Counted from the stretch's first letter, positions 4,402-31,580 are shown. The stretch is 31,580 nt of DNA from an uncultured bacterium (GCA_965603055.1 CBFDBN010000001.1:1-31580), one strand, 5' to 3'. The notes: generated by a model not told the origin, from the sequence alone. A program made the numbers and translations.

Positions 4402-4495
4402 TCGGGCGTAGCGTGTGGGGCGCAAAGCGTAACGGTACTTATTTTGCGCCCTACTCGCTACGCGCCACGCCCAACGCTCTACGCCCCACGCCCTA
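4402..4495. repeat. Heptamer-period (TRGGGCG-like) array arranged as inverted arms
   Basis: Left arm tcgggcg tagcgtg tggggcg caaagcg taacggt (4402-4436). Right arm cgcccta ctcgcta cgcgcca cgcccaa cgctcta cgcccca cgcccta (4447-4495). Confidence 0.85.
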
Positions 4496-5560: not shown

Positions 5561-5645
5561 TTTAATATGATTTATTAAATCCTGGTTTTATTGGAAAAAA
5601 TTACTAACTTTTAATTTGTACATTCTTCGTTAACAATTTTAGATC

Positions 5646-5695
5646 ACTTTAAGTACTTTAAACTTTAGAACACTTTAAATACTTTCAACTTAAGT
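5646..5695. repeat. Short degenerate tandem array of ACTTT(A)-core units (7-10 nt)
   Basis: actttaagt actttaa actttagaac actttaaat actttca acttaagtc, abutting the GT2 stop codon. Confidence 0.7.
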
Positions 5696-6864: not shown

Positions 6865-6980
6865 TCGTAGCTCCTGACACTATGATAGAAAATAAATCCC
6901 GATCATTACTATACTCGTCAAGGTTTAAAATAATAACTATGCTATAAATTAAAAATATTTGAACACCTGTCAGAATATCG

Positions 6981-7046
6981 TAGCGCGTTGGGCGTGGAGA
7001 GTAGGGTGCAGTCGTGTTCACATAATTTCTTATGCCGTACGCGCTA
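6981..7046. repeat. Heptamer-period repeat copy (same family as 4402-4495)
   Basis: tagcgcg ttgggcg tggagag tagggtg (6981-7008), with complementary cgcgcta at 7040-7046. Confidence 0.7.
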
Positions 7047-7190
7047 CCATTACATCCACATAAGCCATTCGAATTGCATTAAAATATATTCTTTCTGGTG
7101 TTACAAAATAATCCTTAACAAATATGTAATGTCGGGTTTGAATAAACTGTTTAAGGATTAGAATGAAAAATAATTAATTAATAAAAAACT

Positions 7191-7226
7191 CTCCGTTTCC
7201 TCAGCGATTTCAGCGATCTCTGCGGC
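7191..7226. repeat. 9-nt-period REP-like repeat (CTCTGCG family), single arm
   Basis: ctccgtttc ctcagcgat ttcagcgat ctctgcggc. Confidence 0.75.
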
Positions 7227-7395
7227 TGAATTACATTTTTTAGGAAAATTTCACTTATATTGACGCCTATTACAAATGAGCAGATGATCACACTGATGAA
7301 AGTTCAAAAATTATCAGGGTGTTTCTTCATTCTGGGTGGGAACAAGTTATCAAATAATCCTAAATTGGTATTTGTAAAACCTTAATCAAAAAGGT

Positions 7396-8535
7396 TTAAT
7401 AAGCTGACGCTTCAAACGTATCATCTTTCCACTGAAATTTTCCCACCTGCCCCCATAGTCCAAAAATTACCACATAAGGCACATGTAAAAACATCGCCAG
7501 TGGAAAAACAGTTAAAGCCCTTTTATAATGAAAAATGTCCGCAAATTTACAGAGCAGCATAAATTCACTAAAACTTTTTACTACCCAGCATGTTAGCCAA
7601 AGCCAGAACACATTGGACAGAAAAATTGAAACCGGTAATAATGTCAACAAAATCAAATTGAACAAATAAACTGCAACAAGAGATAATTTTAACCCGCTTG
7701 AATAATACTTTCCTTTTGAAGCATGTCGAATTCGCTGGTTTGCCAGTTGCTTGAAATGATCTGGAGCTTTCGAGCGAACAAGCGTTTCACGATCAATGGC
7801 ATATCGAAATTTCCAACTGGTTTTCTGCCTCACCAGGTGTAAAAACAGATCATCATCCCCGGAGATGAAATTTTGAATTTGCTTAAATCCATCAACCGAA
7901 TAAAAAGTTTCCTTTCGATATGCCAGGTTGCGTCCATTGCAGGTCATTGGTTTGCCCATCCCAAAGCTGCCTGCTGAAACGGCTGCCAGTGAGAGGGAAT
8001 CCAGTGTTACCAGTCTTGAAAATATTGTTTCTCTCGCATCTTTGACTAACGGAGAAAATCCGGCGACTAAACCGACTTCTGGCTCAAAATAACTTACCAT
8101 TGCTGCTATCCAGCCCGGTTTTGGAATGCAGTCGGCATCGGCTGTTAAGATGATATCCCCTTTTGCTGCCCTTATGCCCTTGTCTAAAGCGTGCTTTTTC
8201 GGTGAAATTCTATCAGGCAATTCCTTTACCATTATTAATTTTGCATTCCGATACTGCTGACAATATTGATCAACAATAGTCGCTGTTTCATCCGTTGAAC
8301 GGTCATCAACGATGATCACTTCATATCGATCGGACGGATATGATTGATGAACCAATGCCTGCAAACAGTTCCCGATATTTTCTTGCTCATTTCGAGCCGC
8401 AACAACCACTGACACATCAAATTGAATTTTATTTTTTCCTGGTTTGAGAAAGAACAATCCCCGGTGTAGTAAAAATATCAAAATAACATATCCAAAAGTT
8501 AGCAAAATTGTCAGAGAAAATAAAACTATTAGCAT
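7396..8535 (-). CDS. Membrane-bound family 2 glycosyltransferase (paralog B), 379 aa
   Basis: VSVVVAARNEQ, DDRSTD, ADADC, SGDDD, QRIRH (variant of QxxRW). TM helices at both ends. Confidence 0.92.
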   Translation of the reverse strand: MLIVLFSLTILLTFGYVILIFLLHRGLFFLKPGKNKIQFDVSVVVAARNEQENIGNCLQALVHQSYPSDRYEVIIVDDRSTDETATIVDQYCQQYRNAKLIMVKELPDRISPKKHALDKGIRAAKGDIILTADADCIPKPGWIAAMVSYFEPEVGLVAGFSPLVKDARETIFSRLVTLDSLSLAAVSAGSFGMGKPMTCNGRNLAYRKETFYSVDGFKQIQNFISGDDDLFLHLVRQKTSWKFRYAIDRETLVRSKAPDHFKQLANQRIRHASKGKYYSSGLKLSLVAVYLFNLILLTLLPVSIFLSNVFWLWLTCWVVKSFSEFMLLCKFADIFHYKRALTVFPLAMFLHVPYVVIFGLWGQVGKFQWKDDTFEASAY

Positions 8536-8730
8536 GAAAGATCAATGGCTGCGAGTCGTAGGTTCAGAGAAGATAATTTTTAGTCAGAAGTTTAAAATAT
8601 CAGTGCATTGATAACTATTAACTTCTCAACTCATAGAACATAATTTTATAAGGTAAGCTATATAATCGCCAACGGATTCTATTATTTTATCTGTTGTTTT
8701 TTAATAAGTTGGATATTTATAATTGTTAAC

Positions 8731-8775
8731 AAGTCTAATATTTTTAGCTATGACTTACTTGAAAATATTAGACTT
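8731..8775. other. Perfect 14-bp inverted repeat (hairpin, possibly a terminator) at the 3' end of the pseudogene
   Basis: aagtctaatatttt (8731-8744) / aaaatattagactt (8762-8775), 17-nt loop. Confidence 0.75.
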
Positions 8776-8949
8776 TTTCCTTTTTGATAATCTGTTTTCC
8801 TCAATAATATTTTTTGCCTTTAATCAGCTTTTTTCATCGTATCCGGAATTATCTTCCAGCCAGGTTTGTAACAATTGGATTGCAACTTTGTTTTTGAGGC
8901 GCCAAACAGATTTTTTATGATCAGATATTTCAACATCGGTATTTGACAT
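8755..8949 (-). pseudogene. Small antitoxin-like gene interrupted by an in-frame TGA (8826-8824)
   Basis: Manual translation: MSNTDVEISDHKKSVWRLKNKVAIQLLQTWLEDNSGYDEKS*LKAKNIIEENRLSKRKKSNIFK*. The frame is open back to 9033, so the start is uncertain. Family resemblance is from recall only. Confidence 0.55.
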
Positions 8950-9039
8950 TTGCCCGGTAAATTTTTCCGGTGCATTATCTGATTGATAGTCTGATTGAAT
9001 AATCCATCCAATATTATTAATGAGATTACTACTCTAAAA

Positions 9040-9111
9040 ACCGATTCCATCGCTAAAATATATCTGGCTCGTTCCATAAAAACAAGAAGTTATATAAGCG
9101 ATGGAATCGGT
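9040..9111. repeat. Perfect 15-bp inverted repeat with 42-nt spacer
   Basis: accgattccatcgct (9040-9054) / agcgatggaatcggt (9097-9111). Confidence 0.85.
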
Positions 9112-9179
9112 AATTGGCTAATCCATCTTTTTATAGTACACTTACTAATATAACAAAAAATTTTTAAATAGCAATGATT

Positions 9180-9815
9180 TTATTTATGAATTGAAATAAA
9201 TTTTAGCCCTTTTTCTTTTAATATTTTTATTACCGGACTGGATATTTTTACTGTGCGTTCACTTTTGATATGACCATCGTGAAAAACAATAATATCGCCA
9301 CCTGAAGTTTTAGTTTCAATGAGTTTTAAGATAAATTTATCCGACACGTGTTCATCGAAATCATAACTCATTACACTCCACAACACCAGCTTTAAATCAA
9401 ATTCCTGACAAACCTGGATTAGTCGGGGAGAAAATATCCCATAAGGCGGTCGAAAATATCGTACTGGCTTGTCAATAATTTGTTCAACAATGAATTTGCT
9501 TTTTTTTAATTGCTGTCGAATAAAAGCTTTTGATTGGTAAAAAAGGCGCTTATGCTCAAACGAATGAATGCCAATCGCATGTCCTGATTGATTCATCTGC
9601 TGAATAATTTCAGGATACTGCTGTGCTCTTTGCCCAACAACAAAAAAAGAAGCCCTCGTCTGTTCTTTTTCCAGAATAGCTAAAATTTGTGGTGTAAAAA
9701 TTGGATCGGGTCCATCATCGAAGGTCAGAAATATTTTATCCTTTGCGTTAGCATCTTGCCAGAGAATTTGTGGGAAGAGTGTAAATAAGGCCGGCGGAAC
9801 TCGGTAAATTTTCAT
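9180..9815 (-). CDS. NodB/CE4 polysaccharide deacetylase, 211 aa
   Basis: LTFDDGP, HSFEH, FRPPYG and FHDG motifs. ATG at 9815 forms an ATGA overlap with the upstream GT2 stop, which is preferred over the track start at 9827. Confidence 0.93.
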   Translation of the reverse strand: MKIYRVPPALFTLFPQILWQDANAKDKIFLTFDDGPDPIFTPQILAILEKEQTRASFFVVGQRAQQYPEIIQQMNQSGHAIGIHSFEHKRLFYQSKAFIRQQLKKSKFIVEQIIDKPVRYFRPPYGIFSPRLIQVCQEFDLKLVLWSVMSYDFDEHVSDKFILKLIETKTSGGDIIVFHDGHIKSERTVKISSPVIKILKEKGLKFISIHK

Positions 9816-10933
9816 CGCCCCTTCCATTCAAATTTGCCCACTATGCCGGCAAATCCAACATAAAGAATATAAGGAATCTGCAATATTTCGGTGAGCAGAA
9901 AATACTTTCTCAAGTCCTGCCTCCCAACCAGAGCCGTTCCTTTAAATATCAGCAAGAAATCGACTATCAATTTGATAAAAAATGCGACTGCTGGATAAGG
10001 GTAATGAAAAATAAATAATAAGGAAAAAGGGAGCGAAATGAATAACAAAAGATAAAAAATATATGTTGCTAATAAAAATAAAACCAGGGAAGCTTTTTTA
10101 TAGACCAGTCCTTTAGAAGCCCAACGAATTCTCTGGTTGAGGAATGAAAAAAAATCAGAAGTCGGATGAGTGTACACAAAAGTATTTGGAGATATACAAG
10201 CTCGGGTTTTCCAGTCGGTCGTTTGATCGATTTTTTGCAACAACAGGTCATCATCCCCACTGATCATGCGATTTTCGCCTCGATACCCGCCAACCTCTTT
10301 AAACACACTGCATCGAAAGGCTAAATTAGCACCATTGGCAATGATGGGATCGCCAGCGCCAATGCTGCCAATCCCAGCCGTAGTCAATCCAAGGAATTCA
10401 AGCGATTGGATTTTATGAAAAAAATTTTTTTCTGAATCTTTTAAAAAGCCCACGTAACCGATTACCATTCCCACGTCGCGCTCAAAATGAGTCATCATCT
10501 CTGAAATCCAATTGGGAGAAGTCCAACAATCAGCATCGGTCGTAACAATGATTTCACCTTCAGCCGCTGCTACTCCTACCTGAAGCGCTCGTTTTTTAGG
10601 AGATACACCGGCTGGGCACTGCCCCAAATAAATAAGTCGGATATATGGATATTTTGAAGAATAGGACTCAACGATTTCACCGGTTTTATCATCAGAATCA
10701 TCATCGATAACAATAATTTCTAATTTATCTTTGGGATAATTTTGGATCAACAGCGAATTGAGACATGTTGAAATATTATGTTGTTCATTTCGGGCTGGAA
10801 TCAGAACGGTTACCAAAAATTGCTTTTTGTTTTTGCCTGGCTTTAATTGAAACAGACCCTGGTAACAATAGAATATTTTTGATGCATAAATTAGTGTTAG
10901 TACAGTGAAAAGAATTAAAATGAAATAAAACAT
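9812..10933 (-). CDS. Membrane-bound family 2 glycosyltransferase (paralog C), 373 aa
   Basis: VTVLIPARNEQ, DDDSDD, TDADC, SGDDD, QRIRW. Start moved to ATG 10933 (MFYFILIL..., GAGAG upstream) because the track's 51-aa extension reads through a repeat. Confidence 0.92.
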   Translation of the reverse strand: MFYFILILFTVLTLIYASKIFYCYQGLFQLKPGKNKKQFLVTVLIPARNEQHNISTCLNSLLIQNYPKDKLEIIVIDDDSDDKTGEIVESYSSKYPYIRLIYLGQCPAGVSPKKRALQVGVAAAEGEIIVTTDADCWTSPNWISEMMTHFERDVGMVIGYVGFLKDSEKNFFHKIQSLEFLGLTTAGIGSIGAGDPIIANGANLAFRCSVFKEVGGYRGENRMISGDDDLLLQKIDQTTDWKTRACISPNTFVYTHPTSDFFSFLNQRIRWASKGLVYKKASLVLFLLATYIFYLLLFISLPFSLLFIFHYPYPAVAFFIKLIVDFLLIFKGTALVGRQDLRKYFLLTEILQIPYILYVGFAGIVGKFEWKGR

Positions 10934-10971
10934 CAATCTCTCAATCAAATAAATTTTTGACTTTGTTTTTT

Positions 10972-11000
10972 CTCTGCGACACTCTGCGATCTCTGCGGTT
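10972..11000. repeat. 9-nt-period REP-like repeat (CTCTGCG family), single arm
   Basis: ctctgcgac a ctctgcgat ctctgcggt t. Confidence 0.85.
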
Positions 11001-11057
11001 TTAATCTTCCTGGTTATCTTTAATAACCGATAAGAGGCGATTCGCCCCTTGCGAACG

Positions 11058-12113
11058 TCATTTCTGGGGGGGGATATTTTTTTCACTATTATTCTTCTGG
11101 AAAATCAACCGATATTTCAAAACCAATACCAGACCAACCATGCTTGGGATCAACAAGTTAATTAAAAAAAGTAAAATCGAAGCATTAAAAGCTGTAGACT
11201 GTTGAATCCCAATTTTCCCCAGGAAAAAAATAGCAGCGCTTTCCCGAATACCCAGGTCACCGAAAGAAATCGGCAGCATCGATTTGACCAACATGGCAGC
11301 GGCTATCGCCAGAAACGCCGGCAAAAGCGGAGCAGTTTCAAACGAACAGACCAGAATATAAAATTGAACCAGGAAGATAAAATAAAAGCAAAAGGTCATG
11401 AGTAACAAATTTATTGCCTGGCGTCGATGAAAATGATCCAGGCTGCTCATCAGAGCTTTTATCTTCTCTCGAAATGGCAGAATGATATTCAGGCTGTACA
11501 AAAAGCCCTTAATGATTTCAGGGTGAAATAATACATAATAAACAACAATCAATGCAATAATCGTGAAGATAACAATTGGCACCATCGTGTATAAATACAA
11601 CTGTTTGCTCACAAAAAACATCAATCCAATTGCCCCCCAAAAAATCACCACTGCGAGAGAAAAAAGTTTATCAATAAAAGCAATGCCAAGCAAGCTAACC
11701 CATGAACAGTCCTTTATAAAAAAAGCACGCCCAAACTCTCCCAGTCGTCCCGGTGTGACAAATCCGAAGGTAAAACCAGCTAATAAAGATTGAAACGTTT
11801 CCCGGTTGCTGACCGGCGGCTTGAGTAATCTCACCAGGTAGCGCCATTTATAAAATTGGATGTAGATATTTGGGATCAGAAGCCCCAGGGCTAAAAAAAT
11901 ACAAAATAGCTTTGCTGATTCATAAGCGGCAACCAATTCGCCTATTTGTAACCGGCGAAACAGCATGATCATAACAAGAAGGGCAATGGAAATTTTAAGT
12001 GTAAAAACCAGTACCCGTTTAGAGATAAACTTTTTGGTTTTCGGTACAGTTTTGACAGATTGGGATTGATCCCTGTTTTTGAAGGACTCCATCTCTGAAC
12101 TTGTTGTATCCAT
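11058..12113 (-). CDS. UPF0104 / lysylphosphatidylglycerol-synthase TM (flippase-like) domain protein; start uncertain (12134, 12113 or 12092)
   Basis: KWRYL, FGFVTPGRLGEFGRAF, DKLF and LPISFGDLGIRE motifs typical of this family; multi-TM. Confidence 0.88.
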   Translation of the reverse strand: MDTTSSEMESFKNRDQSQSVKTVPKTKKFISKRVLVFTLKISIALLVMIMLFRRLQIGELVAAYESAKLFCIFLALGLLIPNIYIQFYKWRYLVRLLKPPVSNRETFQSLLAGFTFGFVTPGRLGEFGRAFFIKDCSWVSLLGIAFIDKLFSLAVVIFWGAIGLMFFVSKQLYLYTMVPIVIFTIIALIVVYYVLFHPEIIKGFLYSLNIILPFREKIKALMSSLDHFHRRQAINLLLMTFCFYFIFLVQFYILVCSFETAPLLPAFLAIAAAMLVKSMLPISFGDLGIRESAAIFFLGKIGIQQSTAFNASILLFLINLLIPSMVGLVLVLKYRLIFQKNNSEKNIPPQK

Positions 12114-13044
12114 CGGATTTCCAGATTTTTTCAATATCTGTTGATTGACTTATATTACCAAAATTAAATTCACCATTCTTATCAAAACAACAGGGAACCA
12201 CCCTGCTATCCGTTAAAATAACAGTGCTATACCATAAACGAATGCATCGATTTTTAGAACGATTATTCAAATGAATTCTATCATTTTCAAATTGATAACG
12301 ACGCCAATCTGGATTGGCTGGTAAAAATATCACACCATCATCCCGGGATTCAACTTGAAAGGTCTTAAATAACAATCGATCGACCTTCAATTCAACCGCC
12401 AGTTTTTTCATCTGTTCAATCTGATGTTCGTTATGTTTCATTACCAGGCATTGAATTAGAACCTTTGGCGTCCTGGCGTGAAGCTTATTTTTCACTTCGA
12501 CCAGGGTTTTGATCCCCATGATAACCTGGTTAAAGTCACCCCCTTTTCGATATTTAGAATAGGTTTCTTGATCTGCACCATCCAGCGAAATGATAATGCT
12601 ATCCAGTCCACTGGTTACTAATTTTTGAACAAATTCTTTGTCAGATAAAAAATGGCCATTAGTACTGGTGGTGACATAAATTCGCTTGTGTTTGGCAATT
12701 TCAATGAATTCAATCAGGTGTGGATTCAAAAATGGCTCGCCCTGGTTGAACAGCAAAAGATACCAGGTTCGGTCGCCAATTTGCTCGATGACTGTTTTAA
12801 ATAAATTCAAGCTTAAAGAACTTTGCTCTCGGTCTACCTTGCCCATACCAGTCAGGCACTGCGGACAATGCAGGTTACAGCACACCGTCGGTTCAACTGT
12901 TAAAATAAAAGGGACACCCCAAACAAAGCTTATTTTACTAAGGATTGATAAACCAAAAGCTGTTAAAGCCTTAAAACAGTTAAAAATCCTTTTCACCGAA
13001 GCCGCTTTGATTACACGCCCCCAAACAATCTCTTCATTTCCCAA
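12019..13044 (-). CDS. Radical SAM protein with Twitch/SPASM domain (BtrN-like architecture), 341 aa
   Basis: EPTVCCNLHCPQC (CxxxCxxC), QGEP, STNG, SLDG, then C...VVPCCFD...FGNI...IW...ICQNC. TTG start with GAGG upstream. Confidence 0.92.
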   Translation of the reverse strand: MGNEEIVWGRVIKAASVKRIFNCFKALTAFGLSILSKISFVWGVPFILTVEPTVCCNLHCPQCLTGMGKVDREQSSLSLNLFKTVIEQIGDRTWYLLLFNQGEPFLNPHLIEFIEIAKHKRIYVTTSTNGHFLSDKEFVQKLVTSGLDSIIISLDGADQETYSKYRKGGDFNQVIMGIKTLVEVKNKLHARTPKVLIQCLVMKHNEHQIEQMKKLAVELKVDRLLFKTFQVESRDDGVIFLPANPDWRRYQFENDRIHLNNRSKNRCIRLWYSTVILTDSRVVPCCFDKNGEFNFGNISQSTDIEKIWKSDGYNKFRDGVLQKQGSIPICQNCTENQKVYL

Positions 13045-15881: not shown

Positions 15882-17045
15882 TCACTCTCCAGCAACGGCA
15901 GATTTTGGCTCCATGTGCAAGATGTTGTTCTGATTGATCTGCATCATCGAAGAATGATATGCTGCAACTCGATTTCGACCTTCAGCTTTTGCTCGATAAA
16001 GAGCACGATCAGCGAATTCGATTAACTCCCGGGAATTAGTAGAATCATCGGGTAAAGTTGCCAGTCCTAAAGAGATCGTCAGGTTTTTATTGGGCTGGTA
16101 TTGCTCTTTCGGAAAATGTCTCAACTCGATGGTTCGTCGTAATTTCTCCGCTACCTGGTCAGCATGGACTTTGTCGATTTCTGGAAGCAGAATGACAAAT
16201 TCTTCACCACCATACCTGGCGACAATGTCTGCTTTGCGAAGATTCGACTCGACCAGGTAAGCGACTTTTTTCAAAACGTCATCACCCAAAAGATGTCCAT
16301 TGATGTCATTATAATTCTTGAAGTAATCAATATCTACCATTAAAATAGACAACGGACGTCGATATCGTTTTGCCCGTAAAACTTCCCTATCAAATCGCTG
16401 GTTGAAATAGCGTCGATTGTAAAGACCGGTTAAATCATCGGTAATCGAAAGTTCTTTGGTATGCTGAAATAGCAGCGACTTGTCCAGCACCTTGGCAATT
16501 TCCAGGGCGATTTTTTTGAAAAAATATCTTTCTTCCTTGTGGAATCCGTTAGTTTCATTTCGATAAAGACTAAAAACACCGAGCGGATGATTTTTTCTCA
16601 ATAAAATTGGAGCTGCAATGAATGAACCGGCTTTCGGCTCTCCACCATAGAATTGAAATTCCGACGAAGCACTAATATCCGGGACGTAAATCGTTTGTTC
16701 AAACTCTAATGCCTTCCCAAAGATGTCTTCGCCAAATTTAAACGAAAATTGTGAATTACCGTTTTTAAGAAGTCCAAAAAATGTAGATAAAGTGAGTGTT
16801 GAAAGCGATTCATCTAACAAGAAAATTCCGAAATGATCAACTTTAATTTTCTTTTGAAATAAGCTTTTAAATGATTTAAGGATTTCATTCAGATCGAAGG
16901 TTTTACTAAGCGTTAGACTGATCAGGTATCGGGAATTAAGCTCAGAAAAACGCTTTTTCAGATCCAGGTTAGACGCCTTGATTTCAGAGTATTTTTTTTG
17001 AAGTTCAGCAAGCTGATCTTTTAAGTTGTCAAAACTTTCTGCCAT
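15882..17045 (-). CDS. Diguanylate cyclase (coiled coil - GAF - GGDEF), 387 aa
   Basis: TDDLTGLYNRRYF, DIDYFKNYND..GH..GD, I-site RKAD, active-site RYGGEEF. Confidence 0.95.
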   Translation of the reverse strand: MAESFDNLKDQLAELQKKYSEIKASNLDLKKRFSELNSRYLISLTLSKTFDLNEILKSFKSLFQKKIKVDHFGIFLLDESLSTLTLSTFFGLLKNGNSQFSFKFGEDIFGKALEFEQTIYVPDISASSEFQFYGGEPKAGSFIAAPILLRKNHPLGVFSLYRNETNGFHKEERYFFKKIALEIAKVLDKSLLFQHTKELSITDDLTGLYNRRYFNQRFDREVLRAKRYRRPLSILMVDIDYFKNYNDINGHLLGDDVLKKVAYLVESNLRKADIVARYGGEEFVILLPEIDKVHADQVAEKLRRTIELRHFPKEQYQPNKNLTISLGLATLPDDSTNSRELIEFADRALYRAKAEGRNRVAAYHSSMMQINQNNILHMEPKSAVAGE

Positions 17046-17133: not shown

Positions 17134-17685
17134 TTATGCTTCAGCCGTTTCTGTTTTCAGGTCATTGTTTAGATACTGAATTAATTTTTTATATTTATTG
17201 TTCAAGCTGTCATTGGTTTGTGCTCTGAAATAAAAGTTGTAAAACGGCTCCCGCATGTCATGATCAAAGCAAATTTTCAATGAAGCCCGGCTTTTTTGAC
17301 ATAGAAAGGTGGTTGTAAGATGAAAATCATTATTCAGGTCAATAACTATGTCGTATTCTGTTGCTAATATCTTTTGTTTTAGTTCTCTTTTGGGAAGTCC
17401 CAAAAAATTTACGTCTCTGTCTGATACAAATATTGTGCCAAAATTATGATCACCATTGAGTAAGCTTCGATAGCTCTCTCTCATTACAAATTGGAACTTA
17501 GCATTTGAAAAGTCATCCATCAGCTTTTTTAAGAATTTTCGAGCAATGCCAAAGTCCTCTAACTTATCAGGCATAAAGACTAAAATTGACCGGGCTTCAG
17601 CCAAAGTGCCAAATACATCTACGACATGGTCACTTTTCCTGAACTTCGCAGTAATTTTTAGGAAGGGAATTGTAAATTTCTCCAT
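17134..17685 (-). CDS. Hypothetical protein, DUF6913-like (resembles the N-terminal half of a GT9 fold), 183 aa
   Basis: YDIVIDL motif with upstream VNFLGLPK and downstream SRASLKICF, recalled from this family. Confidence 0.6.
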   Translation of the reverse strand: MEKFTIPFLKITAKFRKSDHVVDVFGTLAEARSILVFMPDKLEDFGIARKFLKKLMDDFSNAKFQFVMRESYRSLLNGDHNFGTIFVSDRDVNFLGLPKRELKQKILATEYDIVIDLNNDFHLTTTFLCQKSRASLKICFDHDMREPFYNFYFRAQTNDSLNNKYKKLIQYLNNDLKTETAEA

Positions 17686-17831: not shown

Positions 17832-19802
17832 TTACCAATTCGTTTCAAGTTGACCGTGTATGTAATGAATTCTTTTTCCGGGATCGCTATACGATCGCCT
17901 TTCAACGGGAAAACTGGGATATGATTGCGTTGATCCATACTTTAATGACAGGTTTAAAAAATTTGTAATGCTCCATTGAATCCTGATATAACTTCTTGTT
18001 CCGATTCCATTGAGCATCTGGTTGGTTAACATTCCTGGAATATCATGTTCAAATTGGTAAAGCCGACTTTCATAATTATCTGTATCGAAAAAAGTAAGCC
18101 GCGCAGCTACATCCAAATTCGGACGTACTTTTAAGCTCGCATCTTGATATAGCAGTATGCCTTGAAAATTATAAGGATAACGAGAATCTAATTGGCTGTT
18201 GTAATGGTAATCTATCCAGTTCTTTTCTACACGACATCTCAATCTAAGAATTGATGAAGGCTGAAAATCCAGTTGCAGTCTAAGGTTTTTTTTATCACGA
18301 GGTATTACCTGTTTAAATAAGCTGTTGTACGATTCTTTTTGTTCAAATTTATATTGAACTGATAATAGCAAATTTTTAATAATCTTGTGCTCAATTCTAA
18401 AAAGGATATCTTTTCCATTTGATGGCATGGGTATGCGATAAGTACGCCAGGGGAATTTGAACTGATCGAAGTAGACCCTAATTTTTAAATTTTTAATTGG
18501 CTTGATTTGAAATCCGGTATAAATTCCTTGTTCATTTTGTGGATTATCGCTGCTTTCACTGAAGCTATTTCCATAAAAGCTGATAAAATCTTTTGAATAT
18601 TTTCTGCCAAGAACGATAAAATCCAGGTATTGAGATTCCATTAGAACGCCAGATAATAATCCAAAACCTTTGTTCTTAGAACGTGCTATTTCTCCGAATA
18701 AATTAAATTGCCCCAGGATCAAATTATAGTCAATTCCAATTAGCTCATTTATTTTGCCTTCAAAAGAAAACCGATGTAAATTTTCATCCTGAATGGCTGC
18801 TACTCGATTGAAAATTGATCGATAATAAGTTGTTCCCAGTGAAAAATTGGGTGCCGGTTTGATCAAAACACGACCGCCAATTAGCTGCTCATTCAATCGA
18901 TCTTTCTTGCTCATCTCCACAGCATTGCGATGGTAGCCTGAAGTGTAAAAATTTTTTACAGTCCCATCATCATTTAAGGTGGCATCCCGTTGAGTGTCGG
19001 AAATGAATAAGAAAAACTGGTAAATTTTGAAACAAAATTGACCCGCTACCCCGTAAAGTGAAGCATTTTCGTCCACTATCGTATACTCCAGCAACTCTCT
19101 TTCACGCCGCCTGGCTGGAAAAATGGGATCACTTCCTTTATAATAACCATAAGGACTGCTAAAGATCAATCCCCGGGCAAATTCTAAGCGATAGTTACCT
19201 ATTATCAATCTGTCTTTATTAGAATTACCGCGATAACTTAGAAAATATAGTCTCAAATCATCGATTCGATGTTCTCCGCTATCTTTTTCTAATAGCAAAC
19301 CAGCCCGAATAATCTTGCCATAATTTATGTTAACCCGATTATATATTTTTGTCGGTGAAAAATAAGAAGCACTATCTTCACCACTTCCCGGTTTTTCGAT
19401 TTTTCTAATAAATCGAGTTTTGGCTGAAACAGAAAATTGCCTTCCCATCTTTGAAGATGAAACCGTGAGATATTGTTGGAGAATTAAAATTAGGTCGGGA
19501 CTTATATTTTCTACCTGTGTTAATTCTTCAACAGTTTTGAAACTTCCGTACTGTTCCCGATAACTGCTAATCGAAAAAGCCAGGACATTTGATATCCAGG
19601 GAAGGACTGCCAGTTGTTCTGCTGTTGCGTGATTGAGATCAATGGGATTTTTTTCTAATTCAGCCAGCATTTCCAGCAAGTCGGAAATATCCGAATATTC
19701 TCTTTGTCGCTCCAAAAGTTGATCGATCTCTGGTTCCTGGGCTAATAGTAATGAAGAGAAACAAACCAAACAGATGACTATAAATTTTAGCTTATCACTC
19801 AT
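17832..19802 (-). CDS. Exported protein with N-terminal ComEA-like helix-hairpin-helix domain and predicted C-terminal outer-membrane beta-barrel, 656 aa
   Basis: Signal peptide; PIDLNHATAEQLAVLPWI...YREQYGSFKTVEELTQV (HhH); LEKDSGE motif; alternating aromatic beta-strands; terminal W. Confidence 0.8.
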   Translation of the reverse strand: MSDKLKFIVICLVCFSSLLLAQEPEIDQLLERQREYSDISDLLEMLAELEKNPIDLNHATAEQLAVLPWISNVLAFSISSYREQYGSFKTVEELTQVENISPDLILILQQYLTVSSSKMGRQFSVSAKTRFIRKIEKPGSGEDSASYFSPTKIYNRVNINYGKIIRAGLLLEKDSGEHRIDDLRLYFLSYRGNSNKDRLIIGNYRLEFARGLIFSSPYGYYKGSDPIFPARRRERELLEYTIVDENASLYGVAGQFCFKIYQFFLFISDTQRDATLNDDGTVKNFYTSGYHRNAVEMSKKDRLNEQLIGGRVLIKPAPNFSLGTTYYRSIFNRVAAIQDENLHRFSFEGKINELIGIDYNLILGQFNLFGEIARSKNKGFGLLSGVLMESQYLDFIVLGRKYSKDFISFYGNSFSESSDNPQNEQGIYTGFQIKPIKNLKIRVYFDQFKFPWRTYRIPMPSNGKDILFRIEHKIIKNLLLSVQYKFEQKESYNSLFKQVIPRDKKNLRLQLDFQPSSILRLRCRVEKNWIDYHYNSQLDSRYPYNFQGILLYQDASLKVRPNLDVAARLTFFDTDNYESRLYQFEHDIPGMLTNQMLNGIGTRSYIRIQWSITNFLNLSLKYGSTQSYPSFPVERRSYSDPGKRIHYIHGQLETNW

Positions 19803-19842
19803 GAGTTGTCACCTAAAAAGTAGGACAAATTGCCAATTTGTT

Positions 19843-20946
19843 CTACAGTTCGATATAAGACTTAATTTTCTGGAGCTTTGCATTACCGATCCCTTTAACC
19901 TGGCATAACTCCTCCAGGCTTTTGAATTTCCCATTCAGATTGCGGTAGTCAATTATTCTCCGTGCTAATGTAGAACCGATTCCCGGAATTCTTTGTAATT
20001 GCTGTTGAGTTGCTGTATTTATGTTTATTTTTGCAATAGAATCGGTGGTTCGTTCAAAATCTTTTTGTGTCTGAACAGCATGCGCTTTTCGATTGTTAAG
20101 CTGCAATTGAAGTGAAAGGTGATGAGATAATCCCAGACTCTGGTGAGTTGTGACCGCGTAATCTACTTGAAAGTTTGAAAAAAGAAATCCAAACCCGGCG
20201 CAAAATTGAGCCGGTTCAGTTGAAAAACCAGAGCGAAGCGCAATTCTTTGAAATAATAAGTATTCCATGCCGCATCTAAATTCTAAGGGAAACATGGAGT
20301 CTTTGAAAACATCCAGGTTTAATATTAATCCATCCACTGGAAAAATAGCTACTCCAGTACAAAAAGTTTGTGGCAGTTTGTCATGATTTCGCCCCATTGT
20401 GGCTCTATTCAGATTGGTCGCAAAAAATCCCCAGTTTAGTTTTGGCGTCAATTGAACTAAAAATCCAAAATCAGCTCCAAAAGAAAAATCTGAACCATAA
20501 CCGCTTATTTGTAGTTTCATATAATGTAAATTGAAGCCATAAAAGATATTATGTTTCGCAGATCTGTTTACAGACACCAAAAACGATTGTTCACGATAAA
20601 ATTCGTTTCCAAAGCTAATTAAGCCGGTTGCGAAAGTGCCAATGGAAGTGGAAAAAGTCGCTGCCAGTGAGCCATAATTTAGTTCCTTCATTCCAAAAGG
20701 TCGGGTATAATAAGCTGAAAAAGCAGTGCAGTTCAATTGAGCCAGTCCACTACAGTTGATAAAAATAGCACCAGGGGTATTGGCAAGTCCAACATAAGCC
20801 TGTCCCATGGCTTGAATTCTGGCGCTGCTCCCTTTCAGCTCAAAACCGGCGTGAATATTTGTTTGGACTAACAGCAAGATATAGCATGTTATTAGGAAGT
20901 GCTTTTTGAAATTAAGAAAGAAGGTAAATATTTTCTTGACTCTCAT
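19843..20946 (-). CDS. PorV/UPF0164-like outer-membrane beta-barrel fused to a C-terminal ComEA HhH DNA-binding domain, 367 aa
   Basis: Signal peptide; [16 protein letters not shown]...[10 protein letters not shown] (PorV/FadL-like N-terminal motif); beta-strand body; [49 protein letters not shown] (ComEA). Confidence 0.82.
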
Positions 20947-21024: not shown

Positions 21025-21096
21025 TAACCGCAGAGATCGCCGAGATTAATAAGAAAATATTTCTAACTCTGCGTCTTTCTATGATATCTGCGGTTA
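21025..21096. repeat. 9-nt-period REP-like element with both inverted arms
   Basis: taaccgcagagatcgccgaga (21025-21045) ... ctctgcgtctttctatgatatctgcggtta (21067-21096); terminal taaccgcaga/tctgcggtta is a perfect 10-bp inverted pair. Confidence 0.85.
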
Positions 21097-21179
21097 GAAA
21101 TTTTTGTGTCAGTTCAGTTTTTGTGTCCAAAATAGCTCTACCTTTTATTCAAAAATTTGACCGTTTAAGGAGAAAACTC

Positions 21180-22079
21180 ATGACAAACCAGAAAGTTATG
21201 CTTGAAAAAAGAAACCAGGGATTAAGCTATTTTAGTACTATATTATTTATATTATTTACAGTATGGATTTTTCATTCAAATACTTACGCCCAATCCATTA
21301 TTGTCACCGTTGATTTAGAATTGAATGCCCTGCCCGATGAGAATCGTGTAAAACTTCAAGACTTCAAGCAGGTTCTGGAAGATTATCTCAATAATTATAA
21401 ATGGACAAAAGACGAATTCGTTGGTGAATTGAAAATTAATTGGTCATTAGTTTTACAAGATATTAGTGTTAGCTACCAGGATCGTTATAAGGCTCAATTG
21501 TTAGTTACCAATAATTCTGATGTTCAATACGCTGATAAACGCTGTCGATTTGCATACCAGAAAGGAGAAATCCCGGTCCATTCAGATAATAATTGGGAAT
21601 CCCTGACCAGCTTATTAGATTTTTACATGAATATTATAATTGCAGAAGAAATGGATAAATTTGGTCATTTATTAGGAACTCCTTATTTTGAAAGAGCAAA
21701 ATTAATCGCTGAACAAGCAAGGTTTGGATTGGGGCAGTTCATAGAAGGCTGGGACCTTCGTGTCGAATTGATCGTAAACTTATTAAGCGAGAGAACCAGA
21801 AAATACCGCGAGATGAAAGATTTTTATTTCTATGGATTGTACTTTGCCAAAGAAGATCCCAATAAAGCCAGAACCTATATCAAAGAAGCGATTAACATGC
21901 TTGAAGAAATTCAAAAAGATGAAAACCCAAAGTTTAAACGATGTACCAAGTTTTTGGAAGCACATCATATAGAAATTGTTGAGTTATTTAAAAATTCAAA
22001 TGATAGCCAGGTGTTTCAAAAATTGATTAAGCTTGATCCTGATCGAGCAAATATATATCAAGACAATATGAAATTTTAG
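21180..22079 (+). CDS. DUF4835-family protein (annotated as T9SS PorD in Bacteroidota), 299 aa
   Basis: LEDYLNNYKWT, LTSLLDFYMNIIIAEEMDKF...GTPYFERA and GWDLR segments recalled for DUF4835. Start moved to ATG 21180 (AAGGAG RBS). Confidence 0.75.
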   Translation: MTNQKVMLEKRNQGLSYFSTILFILFTVWIFHSNTYAQSIIVTVDLELNALPDENRVKLQDFKQVLEDYLNNYKWTKDEFVGELKINWSLVLQDISVSYQDRYKAQLLVTNNSDVQYADKRCRFAYQKGEIPVHSDNNWESLTSLLDFYMNIIIAEEMDKFGHLLGTPYFERAKLIAEQARFGLGQFIEGWDLRVELIVNLLSERTRKYREMKDFYFYGLYFAKEDPNKARTYIKEAINMLEEIQKDENPKFKRCTKFLEAHHIEIVELFKNSNDSQVFQKLIKLDPDRANIYQDNMKF

Positions 22080-22176: not shown

Positions 22177-23415
22177 TTAATCCCCGGTTTTAAATATAAA
22201 ACTGTAATCTAAAGGTAATAAATTCCCCCACGCATCACTGCAAGTCGTATCTATGGTAACCGTATAAAAAGTGTTGGCTTGCAGCTTTGTTGATCCTGTA
22301 TATTGAAATCTCGTAAAATCGCTCCACTGAAAATTCCAACCGGATATTGCTGGCGAGAGTAAAAATGCCCTTTCCGCCAAATCCTGGTTTACATTCGTAT
22401 TAAAGGTGATCGTAATTGGGGTGGAACGACTGACAGCAGTCGCTCCGTTTGTCGGAAAATTCGATGTTATCCGGAGCGGTTCGGTTTCGAATGTAAATAC
22501 TTCCTCCTGTTCAAGCAAGTTGCCATAGATGTCTTTCGCATCGGAACTTATTGTAATGATATAAGATGTGTTGCTTGCCAGGTAACTTCCCGGTTGAAAA
22601 CTGACTCGCCGGGAATCAAACCATTTAAAATTACCCATTTTTACCGGTGTGATCGAAAAACTCTGCTCTACACTTTGATGATCCATTCTGGAATTAAAAT
22701 AGACGTAGATCCAGGTCTGGGGGGCAATGAAAGAAGCATCGTTTTCTGGAATGGTGGATACGATTTTCACTCCTTCGGTTTTAAAGTATGATTCAAACTT
22801 AAAAGACAATGGCTTCCCATTGCTCGTTTTTGTATCGGTTGTCAAATTGATCACGTAATAGCAGTTTGAAATGTACTGATCATCTGGATAAAATGATAGC
22901 TTGCTATTCCCGGAAATAATTTCCCAGGCAAACCTGCCACTCACAGCCGGAGCAAGAGAAAAACTATTTTCAACTGAATTATGATCCATCAGGGTGCTGA
23001 ACTGAACCTGGATTGGAGCTGTTAGCGCAAAATCCTGTTCACCAGAAACCGGGATAAAACTCATGATCTGTTCCGGGTATGGTTTGAGATGAATATCCCG
23101 GATGGTTGTCACCTGTCCCGGGTTAACAGTTACTTCATTTAAAATTTGACGTCCATAATTACTTGCGGAGAACTCAAGATTATAGATTCCGGCGAAAACA
23201 CTATCGAGTACAAAGTAACCTGATGAATCAGGAGCAGTCGTTTGAAGGAGTGTTCCCTGGAACAATTCAACCTGAACTTCTATTCCTTCCGGTTTCACCA
23301 AACCCGCAATTTTTCCTGGTCTATCTTGAGGAGAATAAGCCTGTTCCCCGGTACAACTGGTAAGGAGAAATAAAAGCAAAATGAACAACAATTTTAAAGT
23401 GCGTGCTGTACCCAT
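22177..23415 (-). CDS. Lipoprotein with carboxypeptidase-regulatory-like domain and three SbsA/Big_5 Ig-like repeats, 412 aa
   Basis: Lipobox LTSC, GGAGG RBS. Three repeats of pattern P..G...V....I.V.F...MD..SVE.SF...P...G.F.W. Confidence 0.85.
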   Translation of the reverse strand: MGTARTLKLLFILLLFLLTSCTGEQAYSPQDRPGKIAGLVKPEGIEVQVELFQGTLLQTTAPDSSGYFVLDSVFAGIYNLEFSASNYGRQILNEVTVNPGQVTTIRDIHLKPYPEQIMSFIPVSGEQDFALTAPIQVQFSTLMDHNSVENSFSLAPAVSGRFAWEIISGNSKLSFYPDDQYISNCYYVINLTTDTKTSNGKPLSFKFESYFKTEGVKIVSTIPENDASFIAPQTWIYVYFNSRMDHQSVEQSFSITPVKMGNFKWFDSRRVSFQPGSYLASNTSYIITISSDAKDIYGNLLEQEEVFTFETEPLRITSNFPTNGATAVSRSTPITITFNTNVNQDLAERAFLLSPAISGWNFQWSDFTRFQYTGSTKLQANTFYTVTIDTTCSDAWGNLLPLDYSFIFKTGD

Positions 23416-23504
23416 TAGATCCTCCCCACAAAGTTTAACCACTTCTAAGTCTACTCAGTCAAATTATTCTTATGATATTAATTTTTTTTATGTTATCTCA
23501 AATA

Positions 23505-29045: not shown

Positions 29046-29459
29046 GTGATCGAAACTGGAGTTGTCAATAAAATCGAAAAAGATATCGCCTGGGTGACGA
29101 TGATAAAAGGCGAACAGTGTGCCGGCTGTACCGCCTGTAATGCTTTTGGCGAAGGGAGCTTTGAATTGGTGGCGCTGAATGACCCGGGAGCAAAGGTGGG
29201 GGATAAAGTAGAAGTCGAGATCAATCCCAGGCAGGTTATCAAACATTCCACCATTGTATTTTTACTCCCGGTGTTGAGTTTAATCATCGGCTATTTTTTA
29301 GGCAATTCCTATCTCACGCTGATAGGATTATCCCTGGAAGCTGCTGGGATTATCGGCAGCCTGGGGCTGATGATCCTTACATTTTTCGCTATTATCGGTT
29401 ATGATCGAATTATCAGCAGGTCTCAGCAAGTGAATGCCCGTATTAACCGGCTTTTGTAG
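29046..29459 (+). CDS. rseC: RseC/MucC-family (SoxR-reducing system) membrane protein, 137 aa
   Basis: E.G.V...., CxxCxxC (CAGCTAC), GAKVGDKVEV, followed by two TM helices with an LP motif. Confidence 0.88.
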   Translation: MIETGVVNKIEKDIAWVTMIKGEQCAGCTACNAFGEGSFELVALNDPGAKVGDKVEVEINPRQVIKHSTIVFLLPVLSLIIGYFLGNSYLTLIGLSLEAAGIIGSLGLMILTFFAIIGYDRIISRSQQVNARINRLL

Positions 29460-29493
29460 CTGGAAGCAATTTTTAAGACTGTGGAGTTACCGT

Positions 29494-31580
29494 TTGCGTT
29501 GTCTTTTTTATCGAAAAATTTTGATAATATTATTAGTCGGGTTCTTCTCGACTGGCGATGATGTTGTGGGAAATGATGTGATTGTTAAAACGCTATCAGA
29601 CCAGGGAATGGTCATTGAATTTTCTCCGCAACAGTGGATGATAAAACCGGAAATCGTTAATGGAAAATCATATTACAAAATTAATTTTGATAATTGTGCT
29701 TTTAGAACGTCAACGGGTCAGCCTTTAATTCCCGGGCGAACCATCGTTGTGGGAATTCCCTTTGAAGCCAGGGTTTCAGTCGAATTATTGGAATCTGAAA
29801 AAAATAAAACAGTTGAAGGAAAATTATTACCGACCCCCGGTTTTGAGCGTCACACCATTGCTGAAATCGCGTATCGAGAAGATCAGGCAATCTACCAGGC
29901 AGGGCAGCTATTTCCCCGTCAATTAGTTGAAATATCTCCCCCGGCCATCTTTCGGGATCAGCAGGTTGTATTGGTGAGCTTTTATCCAGTGCAATATTTC
30001 CCACAGGGGGAGCAGATCCAATTGTATGATCGGATTCAAGTTCGACTCATTTTTTTTGGTGGTCAGCGTGAAGAACATTTTGAAACCCGGTTGGATAATG
30101 ACCTGTTAAATAATCAGTTAATAATTAATCCTGACCAGGCTTTAAAATGGCGAAAAACCAGAATATCAAAAAAACAAACAAAATTAAGGAAGATATTTTT
30201 AGAAGAATATTATAAAATCTGGATTCATGAGGAAGGGATTTATAAGATTTTTGGGACCGATTTAAAAGAGGCTGGAATCGAACTCAGCGACATCAAGCCA
30301 AATCGAATAAAGCTGTTTAATAATGGTGGATTTCAACTGCCATACGCAATTTACGAAGGGCGTCCTGACAGCTTGATTGAGAATGCAGTTTTTGTATCTG
30401 ATGGGGGAGATAGTTCATTTGATTCCCAGGATTATATTTTATTTTATGGCAAATCTGTAAATGGCTGGAAATATGATCGAGAACAGCAAAGATTTTCTCA
30501 TTATCTTCATCCCTATACAAAGGAGAATGTTTATTGGCTCTGCTGGCAGCATCCCGATTCCGGGAAAAGAATGATCTGTGAAGCTGTTACGCCTGCCACT
30601 TCAGTTACAGAGATCAACAGCTTTTATGATCATCATTATGTTGAAAACGAGTATAAAAATCTATTAAATTCAGGGACAACCTGGCTGGGAAATTATTTTA
30701 GCGCTGCTAATCCAGAAAGAAATTATATATTTGATCTCCCTGGTGTTTCACAAAAAAAGGAAGCGATGGTCAACGTCAACCTGGCAGGGATTTCTGGCGG
30801 CGAACAAAATTTTTCGCTGTATTTAAATGATGCTTATGTTGCCGGGGTACCAGCGTTTTATAGCAGCACCGGGGAATATCTAAATATCAAAATGAAACAA
30901 TTCCAGACTACTTTTCAGGTCGGTTTACAAGATGGCTATAATCGATTGAGCGTTAAATATTCATCAGGCAATGATATCAGCCTTGCCTATATGGACTGGA
31001 TTGAATTATCTGTTCATCGGCAATTGAAAGCAAAGGAAGATCAACTGGTATTTTATAGTCCTGATTCGATTGGTTTTTATAAATACCAGCTCCATTCATT
31101 TTCTTCGGATGAGATTGAAGTTTATGATGTAACAAATTTTTATGATGTTTCTCGGTTGAAAATTAATACAGTTAGCAACGGTGCTGTTGAATTTTTGGAT
31201 TCGACAAATTCATATATTCCGAAAAAATATTTAGCCATAACTCCAGGATTGTACCAGTCACCCATCAAAATTGAAATAGACATACCTTCTGATTGGCACA
31301 ATACTCAAAATACGGCTGATTTTATCATCATCAGCTATGATGATTTTTATGATGCAGCGTTAGCCTTAAAAAGTTTACGTGAAAATTGTGATAGCCTGAA
31401 CACGGCAGTAGTGAAAATTAGCGATGTCTATGATGAGTTTTCCTGGGGCTTGGTCGATCCGACTGCCATACGTGATTTCATCAAATATGCTTATGATAAT
31501 TGGCAAAAGCCGCCAAATTATGTTTTGCTGTTTGGTGATGGGGATTATGATTATAAAAATATCATTTCGTCTCATGATCC
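29494..31580 (+). CDS. porU: PorU-type C25 (gingipain-family) T9SS sortase, 3'-partial
   Basis: Absent from the ORF track; frame open from 29434 to the window end. Signal peptide after TTG 29494 (GGAG RBS). Propeptide GQPLIPG and FRDQQVVLVSFYPVQY; YKIWIHEEGIYKI, NGGFQLP, DYILFYG, HPYTKENVYWL, ADFIII, VYDEFSWGLVDPTAIRDFIKY, YVLLFGDGDYDYKN. Confidence 0.9.
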   Translation, partial: MRCLFYRKILIILLVGFFSTGDDVVGNDVIVKTLSDQGMVIEFSPQQWMIKPEIVNGKSYYKINFDNCAFRTSTGQPLIPGRTIVVGIPFEARVSVELLESEKNKTVEGKLLPTPGFERHTIAEIAYREDQAIYQAGQLFPRQLVEISPPAIFRDQQVVLVSFYPVQYFPQGEQIQLYDRIQVRLIFFGGQREEHFETRLDNDLLNNQLIINPDQALKWRKTRISKKQTKLRKIFLEEYYKIWIHEEGIYKIFGTDLKEAGIELSDIKPNRIKLFNNGGFQLPYAIYEGRPDSLIENAVFVSDGGDSSFDSQDYILFYGKSVNGWKYDREQQRFSHYLHPYTKENVYWLCWQHPDSGKRMICEAVTPATSVTEINSFYDHHYVENEYKNLLNSGTTWLGNYFSAANPERNYIFDLPGVSQKKEAMVNVNLAGISGGEQNFSLYLNDAYVAGVPAFYSSTGEYLNIKMKQFQTTFQVGLQDGYNRLSVKYSSGNDISLAYMDWIELSVHRQLKAKEDQLVFYSPDSIGFYKYQLHSFSSDEIEVYDVTNFYDVSRLKINTVSNGAVEFLDSTNSYIPKKYLAITPGLYQSPIKIEIDIPSDWHNTQNTADFIIISYDDFYDAALALKSLRENCDSLNTAVVKISDVYDEFSWGLVDPTAIRDFIKYAYDNWQKPPNYVLLFGDGDYDYKNIISSHD

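Follow-up and report, generated by a model that had tools for sequence, protein, structure and literature searches.

Outer-membrane barrel genes with ComEA-fold domains form a conserved pair beside a porD-like gene in an uncultured bacterium

The stretch of DNA analyzed here, called the window throughout, comprises 31,580 nucleotides (nt) from an uncultured bacterium (GCA_965603055.1, CBFDBN010000001.1:1-31580), whose metagenome-assembled genome (MAG) is 92% complete and consists of 689 contigs. On its minus strand lie two open reading frames (ORFs), gene A of 367 amino acids (aa) and gene B of 656 aa, which are indeed separated by 40 nt, as described in an earlier note made from the sequence alone (Table 1). 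A encodes a small outer-membrane β-barrel with a C-terminal helix-hairpin-helix (HhH) domain of the ComEA type, and B an N-terminal HhH domain followed by a much larger barrel. The two genes belong together in many genomes, and we hold both this domain architecture and the conserved pairing with high confidence. No terminator-like site was found in the spacer between them.

Table 1. Features of the A-B locus and its surroundings in the window.
Feature	Position (nt)	Strand	Evidence
Gene A, 367-aa small outer-membrane barrel with C-terminal ComEA-type domain	19843..20946	-	ORF; Pfam and NCBIfam matches; AlphaFold pLDDT 84
A, signal peptide, aa 1-33, probably cleaved behind ...NIHA	20848..20946	-	Hydrophobic N-terminal helix aa 2-28 (model, sequence); cleavage site inferred by eye
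A, barrel of PorV/FadL type: short-helix N-terminal segment aa 37-70 and 14 β-strands aa 75-282	20092..20838	-	DSSP; Foldseek; NF033709 E 3.6e-15, below cutoff
A, flexible linker, aa 286-303	20038..20091	-	pLDDT <50 over aa 286-303
A, HhH domain of canonical ComEA type, aa 304-367, net basic, with two G-I-G hairpins	19846..20037	-	HHH_3 80 bits; TIGR00426 66 bits; 32/59 residues identical to own-genome ComEA
A-B spacer, 40 nt, AGGTG ribosome-binding-like motif before the ATG of B	19803..19842	-	
Gene B, 656-aa large outer-membrane barrel with N-terminal ComEA-fold domain	17832..19802	-	ORF; model pLDDT 84, pTM 0.81; single copy in genome
B, HhH-fold domain, aa 51-112, degenerate hairpins LPWIS and VENIS, net acidic family-wide	19467..19652	-	HHH_3 E 7e-13; superposes on 8dss_B
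B, barrel, aa 120-656, ~24 long strands, C-terminal Trp	17835..19445	-	DSSP; structural matches
DUF4835/PorD-like gene, divergent, conserved neighbor	21081..22079	+	PF16119 E 3e-35; NF052317 120 bits, below cutoff 170
DUF6913 gene downstream of B, neighbor conserved within class	17134..17685	-	PF21857 E 2e-12
GAF-GGDEF diguanylate cyclase, frequent downstream neighbor	15882..17045	-	Pfam; 21/40 loci
CarboxypepD_reg and three Big_5 domains, neighbor conserved within the window's order	22177..23442	-	Pfam; 11/40 loci and L001
PorU-like C25 sortase, truncated at the window end, given as context	29434..31578	+	Pfam C25 and propeptide; NF033707 E 4e-100

The structures of both proteins were predicted with AlphaFold from alignments of 42 homologs of A and 52 homologs of B. 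In the model of A (mean predicted local distance difference test score, pLDDT, 84; predicted template-modeling score, pTM, 0.67), a signal peptide is followed by a short N-terminal segment, 14 β-strands, a linker of low confidence, and a compact, helical HhH domain. In a Foldseek search, the barrel matched the channels FadL, TbuX and TodX, as well as solved PorV chains of type IX secretion systems (T9SS), at template-modeling (TM) scores of 0.5-0.6 and a probability of 1.0; the scores for the PorV chains, 8gl6_F and 6h3i_F, were 0.55-0.60. Against NF033709, the PorV/PorQ family of NCBIfam, A reached 56.4 bits over aa 40-200 (E 3.6e-15), which is under the cutoff of 90, and no match of A to the PorV equivalog NF033710 was listed in the NCBIfam scan. 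When the NF033709 profile was run over the genome of the window, 11 other loci exceeded the cutoff, and A appeared as two fragments of 28-29 bits. Judged by these profile scores, A is a divergent, sub-cutoff member of the PorV/PorQ family and not PorV itself. The earlier note had called A PorV-like, and this holds for the type of barrel but not for an identification as PorV.

At least 11 PorV/PorQ paralogs above the cutoff, and several weaker ones, are present among 21 matched stretches of this genome, which is a large expansion for a single genome. Another PorV-type barrel with a large domain behind it is encoded on contig C327 (L016: 52-2907, minus strand) by an ORF of 951 aa, in which a PorV/FadL-like barrel (NF033709 70 bits, aa 89-283) is followed by a long C-terminal extension with TPR matches; the next gene encodes a Reg_prop/FlgD_ig protein. 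As a second A-B-like pair, this locus was rejected, because the ORF is a PorV-like barrel with a TPR-containing extension and not a relative of B.

The model of B (mean pLDDT 84, pTM 0.81) shows a signal peptide, the HhH domain (approximately residues 40-108) and, according to DSSP, ~24 long strands running up to a C-terminal Trp. Among solved structures, its barrel comes closest to those of FimD (Z 14.5) and PapC (Z 13.8), ushers with 24 strands, with ~360 aligned residues at 8-9% identity, and to the 26-strand MtrB. No specific solved relative was found in the PDB by Foldseek or VIA-align, which returned only generic large barrels at TM ~0.4. In AFDB, B matches unnamed 'HhH domain-containing' clusters (TM 0.85), and in the ESM Atlas likewise unnamed or hypothetical clusters, while its barrel also resembles, in AFDB, similarly sized 'SD-repeat B domain' barrel proteins (TM ~0.5). 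Outside the HhH domain, B has no match in Pfam or NCBIfam, and the features specific to ushers (plug, N- and C-terminal domains), TonB-dependent transporters (TonB box and plug) or MtrB-type barrels (decahaem partner) were not found with these databases.

Conservation was assessed in two sets of loci. Within the phylum of the window, 40 loci from other genomes, covering ~24 families, were scanned with purpose-built profiles. Outside the phylum, 80 named loci of Bacteroidota and Ignavibacteriota, 75 of which had enough upstream sequence, were found from a narrow, four-sequence alignment of B. Close relatives of A and of B are labeled candidate division KSB1. B is located directly downstream of A in 38 of the 40 phylum loci, and A adjoins B in 68 of the 75 named loci. 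The named carriers include the cultured strains Crocinitomix catalasitica ATCC 23190 and Adhaeribacter aquaticus DSM 16391, several Belliella type strains, and many Ignavibacteriota MAGs. The coupling persists where the identity of B to the window's protein is just 25-30%, and the gaps between the genes often measure 0-13 nt, or the stop and start codons overlap. Thus, A and B have long formed a closely coupled unit in the phylum of the window, in Ignavibacteriota and in cultured Bacteroidota.

Several loci deviate from, or seemed to deviate from, this arrangement. A subgroup of Ignavibacteriota B proteins (~700 aa) is encoded without an adjacent A; of the 75 named loci, ~7 are of this kind, L098, L102 and L104 among them. 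In an Ignavibacteria MAG (L002, 3450-5981), B is preceded by genes for an Omp28-family lipoprotein and a DUF6029 protein, possibly an alternative set of partners; the lipoprotein was rejected as a homolog of A, as it shows no similarity and the A profile remained silent even at E <= 10. Open frames of 950-971 aa in three genomes (G011:C10, G001:C10 and G065:C57; L006-L008) were considered as fusions of A and B and discarded, since a stop codon divides each into two genes, which share a reading frame and lie 0-6 nt apart. A MAG labeled Arenicella sp., a gammaproteobacterium (L066), contains a Crocinitomix-like A-B pair with a B that is 60% identical to the Crocinitomix query; the contig is probably mis-binned Bacteroidota DNA rather than a case of gene transfer.

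A second conserved element is the gene that diverges from A. Its product matches Pfam DUF4835 with 122 bits, against a cutoff of 25, and the equivalog NF052317 with 120.3 bits, below the cutoff of 170; the homolog in L011 reaches 218 bits against the latter. In 37 of the 40 phylum loci, a PorD-like gene is located beside A, on the opposite strand. Among the named loci, PorD is adjacent in 36 of 75, all in Ignavibacteriota-type rows, and it is also adjacent in L001, L011 and L060. The T9SS-linked surroundings that the earlier note had pointed out are thus present: the pair is divergent from the PorD-like gene, and a PorU-like C25 peptidase gene starts at 29434, ~8.5 kb away. PorD (DUF4835) is a periplasmic part of the extended T9SS translocon that binds PorW/SprE (PMC8754138, PMC10994853). 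The tie between porD, A and B most likely reflects an envelope complex that works with or beside the T9SS translocon.

The two HhH domains differ markedly. HHH_3 (PF12836), with a cutoff of 27 bits, matches aa 304-365 of A (E 1.4e-22, 80 bits), so that a complete ComEA-type domain is present at its C-terminus, and aa 51-112 of B (E 7e-13, 48.9 bits). On the ComEA HhH-repeat model TIGR00426 (cutoff 53.1), A scores above the cutoff with 66 bits and B below it with 32.5 bits, while both are under the cutoff of 152 for the full-length ComEA model TIGR01259 (82.8 bits for A, 37.1 for B). The domain of B superposes on Geobacillus ComEA (8dss_B) with 1.1 Å over 65 aa. In the Pfam scan, weak matches to PsbU and to GspK of the type II secretion system (T2SS) accompany HHH_3. 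The domain of A is 54% identical (32/59 residues) to the 162-aa ComEA of the same genome and 39% identical to the domain of B. A-type domains have a median net charge of +3 to +5.5, and the pattern G-h-[G/S/N] is found in both hairpins of 40 out of 41. B-type domains have a median net charge of -1 to -2, and 81 out of 95 possess the glycines in neither hairpin; LPWIS stands at the first hairpin in the KSB1 sequences of B. The statement in the earlier note that each protein carries a DNA-binding HhH domain is therefore supported as to the ComEA fold of both and the canonical nature of the domain in A, but not as to DNA binding by B.

Since the domain of B lacks the G-h-G hairpins and is net acidic, only that of A resembles a working DNA binder. 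On the basis of these features we consider it fairly probable that the domain of A binds DNA. The HhH domain of B is present in every B with enough upstream sequence (75 of 75 named loci), and such retention suggests that it is functional, but probably no longer as a conventional DNA binder.

Fusion of the barrel of A to an HhH domain is much less widespread than the pair itself. Assemblies from JGI, ENA, NCBI and Logan contributed ~30 protein clusters with full-length fused A. An intact fusion is present in 13 of the 40 phylum loci, besides the window's own gene, and is confined to the families f1, f2, f3, f5 and f11 of the survey; it occurs in none of the 75 named Bacteroidota or Ignavibacteriota loci. 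In these samples the fusion is thus restricted to a subclade of the phylum, in agreement with the remark in the earlier note that HhH-barrel proteins beside a barrel gene are familiar and a second ComEA domain, on the small barrel, is not. A maximum-likelihood tree built from the barrel domain requires, by its well-supported branches, six or more changes between the fused state and the bare state, in which the HhH domain is absent. Even sister sequences differ, as the fused A of the window is 77% identical to the bare A of CP070762 (L001). Relics of the domain can be recognized in two bare loci and give the direction of the change, namely loss. In L023, an HhH sequence with degraded hairpins (E 1e-13) and an in-frame stop codon follows the barrel, and in L001, intergenic DNA can be aligned to the final helix of the HhH domain in the window, beside a deletion of ~120 nt. 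Among the fused homologs, linker and HhH domain are in frame and conserved in sequence. The simplest history would be that the domain was gained once within the class and lost many times thereafter. The loss of the domain in close relatives suggests that it is a dispensable accessory. The best explanation for the two domains appears to be that the HhH domain of A is a later acquisition from a canonical ComEA, and that of B an old ComEA-derived domain.

In characterized outer-membrane barrels with an even number of strands, both chain ends are located in the periplasm. In the predicted models, the HhH domain of A comes after strand 14 and that of B before strand 1; by this rule, both domains would be periplasmic, an orientation that we consider likely. 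The chain of bare homologs of A stops a few residues at most after the last strand, and homologs of B mostly end in L, F, Y or W, the usual C-terminal residues of a barrel.

When the mature chains of A and B were co-folded, the score was 0.63, against 0.00 for the best control. The mark that the pair thereby passed is reached by 51 of 78 solved complexes and by 2 of 108 mismatched pairs. The confident contacts consist of alternating strand residues of both barrels (B ~474-644, A ~131-221) and two loops, and the HhH domains take no part in the interface. The co-fold would thus represent packing of the two barrels wall to wall within the membrane. Contact between A and B, to which both the co-fold and the co-inheritance of the genes point, is supported, not proven, and may be called probable. 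The view of the earlier note that A and B form a pair is in line with both observations.

A barrel of the FadL/PorV type that packs laterally on a much larger one, as predicted for A and B, is reminiscent of PorV-SprA, PorQ-PorZ and PorV-PorU of the T9SS, and the position of the pair beside porD, with a PorU-like gene 8.5 kb off, also resembles T9SS settings. Unlike PorV, however, A stays under the PorV/PorQ cutoff, has no significant match to the PorV equivalog and has at least 11 better-scoring paralogs, and B, with ~24 strands, differs from the 36-strand SprA, to which it has no sequence relation. To our knowledge, no PorV-family protein carries an HhH domain. A further parallel is BamG-BamA of the β-barrel assembly machinery of Bacteroidota, where a 14-strand barrel of the FadL family is the structural partner of a larger barrel, an arrangement conserved across the Fibrobacteres-Chlorobi-Bacteroidetes (FCB) superphylum (PMC12611786; PDB 9n2d). 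Chain 9n2d_B is among the structural matches of A, albeit a weak one (TM 0.45). B, unlike BamA, has no POTRA domains and is not Omp85-like, and the A-B pair is linked to porD and not to bam genes. The likeness of B to the ushers FimD and PapC is one of barrel size only, which suggests ~24 strands and a wide lumen; the usher plug and the N- or C-terminal usher domains are absent from B, and no chaperone or pilin genes lie nearby.

As to DNA handling, the HhH domain of A resembles ComEA, known from Geobacillus (8dss) and as a periplasmic protein from Vibrio, in passing TIGR00426, in its two G-I-G hairpins and its basic charge, and in its predicted periplasmic location, which it shares with ComEA of Gram-negative bacteria. 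ComEA is small and either soluble or anchored in the inner membrane, whereas the HhH domains of A and B are tethered to outer-membrane barrels; moreover, the copy in B is acidic and lacks the hairpin glycines, and TIGR01259 fits neither protein. A different outer-membrane route, formed by RA0C_RS04915/RS04920 in Riemerella and DdbCD in Bacteroides, serves natural transformation in the former and the use of DNA in the latter; in it, a barrel of the CarboxypepD_reg/TonB-dependent type has a DUF5689 partner at the surface, and in Riemerella a periplasmic HhH protein of ~300 aa, RA0C_RS02645, is also needed (PMC8459023, PMC12478041). This is a Bacteroidota-type, pilus-independent path for DNA across the outer membrane with a periplasmic HhH protein, but the resemblance to A-B is a functional analogy at most. 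Compared by description and domain scans, B differs from DdbC-type barrels in having no CarboxypepD_reg or TonB-dependent-receptor match, and the domain scans revealed no DUF5689 gene in the window. RA0C_RS02645 was likewise rejected as a relative of the HhH domains, because this ~300-aa periplasmic protein has a different architecture and offers an analogy only. A literature search found no paper on the A-B pair or on a fusion of a PorV-like barrel and ComEA.

A survey of the genome of the window for secretion and competence genes revealed SprA (contig C95), a secretin, DprA, and a canonical membrane-anchored ComEA encoded near PilM, and ComEC was found in 19 of the 21 genomes searched, the window's own being one of the 21. 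A conventional DNA-uptake kit thus probably exists independently of A-B. The ComEA protein of 162 aa is encoded on contig C13 (L017: 2201-2689, minus strand) and consists of a hydrophobic N-terminal anchor and HHH_3; its first hairpin reads Q-I-G and not G-I-G. The gene is flanked by dnaJ/grpE-like genes on one side, and on the other by a gene for a 297-aa protein without a family match, followed by the PilM-like gene. No match to Pfam GldM_1st was found in this genome, but the divergence of the phylum and the 92% completeness bar any conclusion from this.

Some further neighbors are conserved over shorter distances. Downstream of B, a DUF6913 gene is found in 25 and a GAF-GGDEF cyclase gene in 21 of the 40 phylum loci, a linkage that holds within the class of the window. 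DUF6913 is weakly heptosyltransferase-like, and the two genes after B suggest a longer operon-like unit with possible control by cyclic di-GMP (c-di-GMP). The Big_5 protein gene beyond porD is conserved within the window's order. Elsewhere in the window (4493-13044), an upstream, co-directional cluster encodes two radical-SAM/SPASM enzymes, three family 2 glycosyltransferases, a polysaccharide deacetylase and an LPG_synthase_TM-family protein.

Taken together, these data suggest that A and B may be two subunits of a conserved outer-membrane complex, in which A would pack side by side on the usher-size B, as PorV does on SprA and BamG on BamA. Through the tie with porD, the complex would work with or beside the type IX translocon. 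The HhH domain of B, having lost the hairpin glycines and the positive charge, would probably serve as a docking or structural module in the periplasm. The HhH domain of A, on its flexible linker of ~20 residues, may bind double-stranded DNA non-specifically and so keep it close to the wide pore of B, on the inner side of the outer membrane. As such, it could be an optional accessory for DNA retention or uptake, parallel to the secretin, pilus and ComEA kit of the genome. The reading that we favor, a secretion-linked envelope complex that also tethers periplasmic DNA under the B pore in lineages that have kept the ComEA domain of A, is tentative and falls somewhat short of probable; an actual role of the complex in DNA uptake or retention is speculative and rather unlikely.

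Several points weigh against this interpretation. Most lineages lack a canonical HhH domain on either subunit, and DNA handling would thus not be the core function unless the degenerate domain of B still binds DNA, and the repeated loss of the HhH domain of A argues that its contribution is marginal. With porD, the link is by gene neighborhood alone, and the Bacteroidota rows L061-L094 do not show it; deletion of porD leads to a mild secretion phenotype or none (PMC8754138, PMC10994853). The orientation of the HhH domains is taken from predicted models and from the rule that generally applies to barrels with an even number of strands. The co-fold score expresses model confidence, which might be inflated by complexes like PorV-SprA in the training data. 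Finally, ComEC was not found in the 92%-complete assembly of the window's own genome.

The main rival explanation is a complex linked to secretion or the envelope that has no role with DNA at all, with the HhH domains as periplasmic docking or scaffold modules and the extra domain of A neutral or weakly useful. HhH-related domains in PsbU and GspK serve as protein-docking or scaffold modules, and it is these two families that gave the weak matches in the HHH_3 region. The conserved porD neighborhood would fit such a complex, and so would the repeated loss of the domain of A and the retention of that of B in all 75 loci with upstream room in spite of its lost hairpins and charge. Besides, A belongs to the PorV/PorQ superfamily, all known members of which are T9SS carriers or anchors (PMC7463736). 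However, the domain of A is canonical and strongly basic in 40 of 41 cases, and this points to selection for the binding of DNA wherever the domain is retained, and ComEA-type domains were apparently recruited to the complex more than once, ancestrally on B and here on A. On balance, we find this explanation doubtful.

A bolder version of the favored reading, in which A-B is a hitherto unrecognized conduit for nucleic acid through the outer membrane in the FCB superphylum, seems improbable. The B pore would then pass DNA, with the ComEA-fold domains acting as a periplasmic ratchet, for uptake or release independent of pilus and secretin and coupled through PorD to the T9SS scaffold. If so, lineages in which this activity is boosted would be marked by the repeated gain of a canonical ComEA domain in the small subunit.

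Alternatively, the pore of B might export a polymer, extracellular DNA or polysaccharide, for a biofilm matrix under the control of c-di-GMP, while the periplasmic HhH domains feed or hold DNA. The frequent cyclase and DUF6913 genes downstream of B could be taken to indicate this, as could the size of B, which approaches that of barrels exporting polymers or fibers, such as ushers, together with weaker matches to AlgE, Wzi and PelB. However, the linkage to these two genes is found only in the class of the window and is missing in L007, L011 and the distant families L052-L057. Beside the pair, neither a polysaccharide synthase nor a nuclease is conserved, and the structural matches amount to generic barrel similarity (TM ~0.4). 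We regard an export function as quite improbable.

The model of the earlier note, in which HhH receptors are displayed on pores outside the cell to capture DNA, must be considered very improbable. Its appeal lies in the DNA binding of ComEA-type domains and in the unusual outer-membrane machinery that Bacteroidota use for DNA uptake, i.e., RS04915/RS04920 of Riemerella and DdbCD of Bacteroides (PMC8459023, PMC12478041). Yet, both HhH domains are attached to termini that barrel topology places in the periplasm, which makes capture at the surface unlikely; that of B lacks the hallmarks of DNA binding, and A and B are unrelated to DdbC/DdbD-type proteins as far as domain scans show. That the fusion in A is merely an artefact of assembly or gene calling, a concern raised by the fragmentation of the MAG and by a relative (G105) with the gene split over two frames, is excluded by the recurrence of the uninterrupted architecture in independent assemblies and by the in-frame, conserved linker and domain.

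The window thus appears to combine two known kinds of protein, a PorV-type barrel and a ComEA domain, in an unusual and evolutionarily unstable variant of a conserved, uncharacterized module. The parts list of the T9SS is nearly complete, yet porD has no clear function; here it is the constant neighbor of an unstudied two-barrel module across two phyla. A-B therefore offers a testable partner system for PorD, and the module is also present in cultured Bacteroidota. If the proposed packing is correct, A-B would be the third case, after PorV-SprA and BamG-BamA, of a FadL-type barrel that partners a larger barrel in the superphylum. The ComEA domain of A is the only functional hint so far, and it points to periplasmic DNA. 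As such, it bears on the passage of DNA over the outer membrane in Bacteroidota-related bacteria, a question only partly answered by the work on Riemerella and on Ddb of Bacteroides. If, on the other hand, the HhH domains do not bind DNA, they would clearly exemplify how a fold for DNA binding can be put to new use as a scaffold in the envelope.

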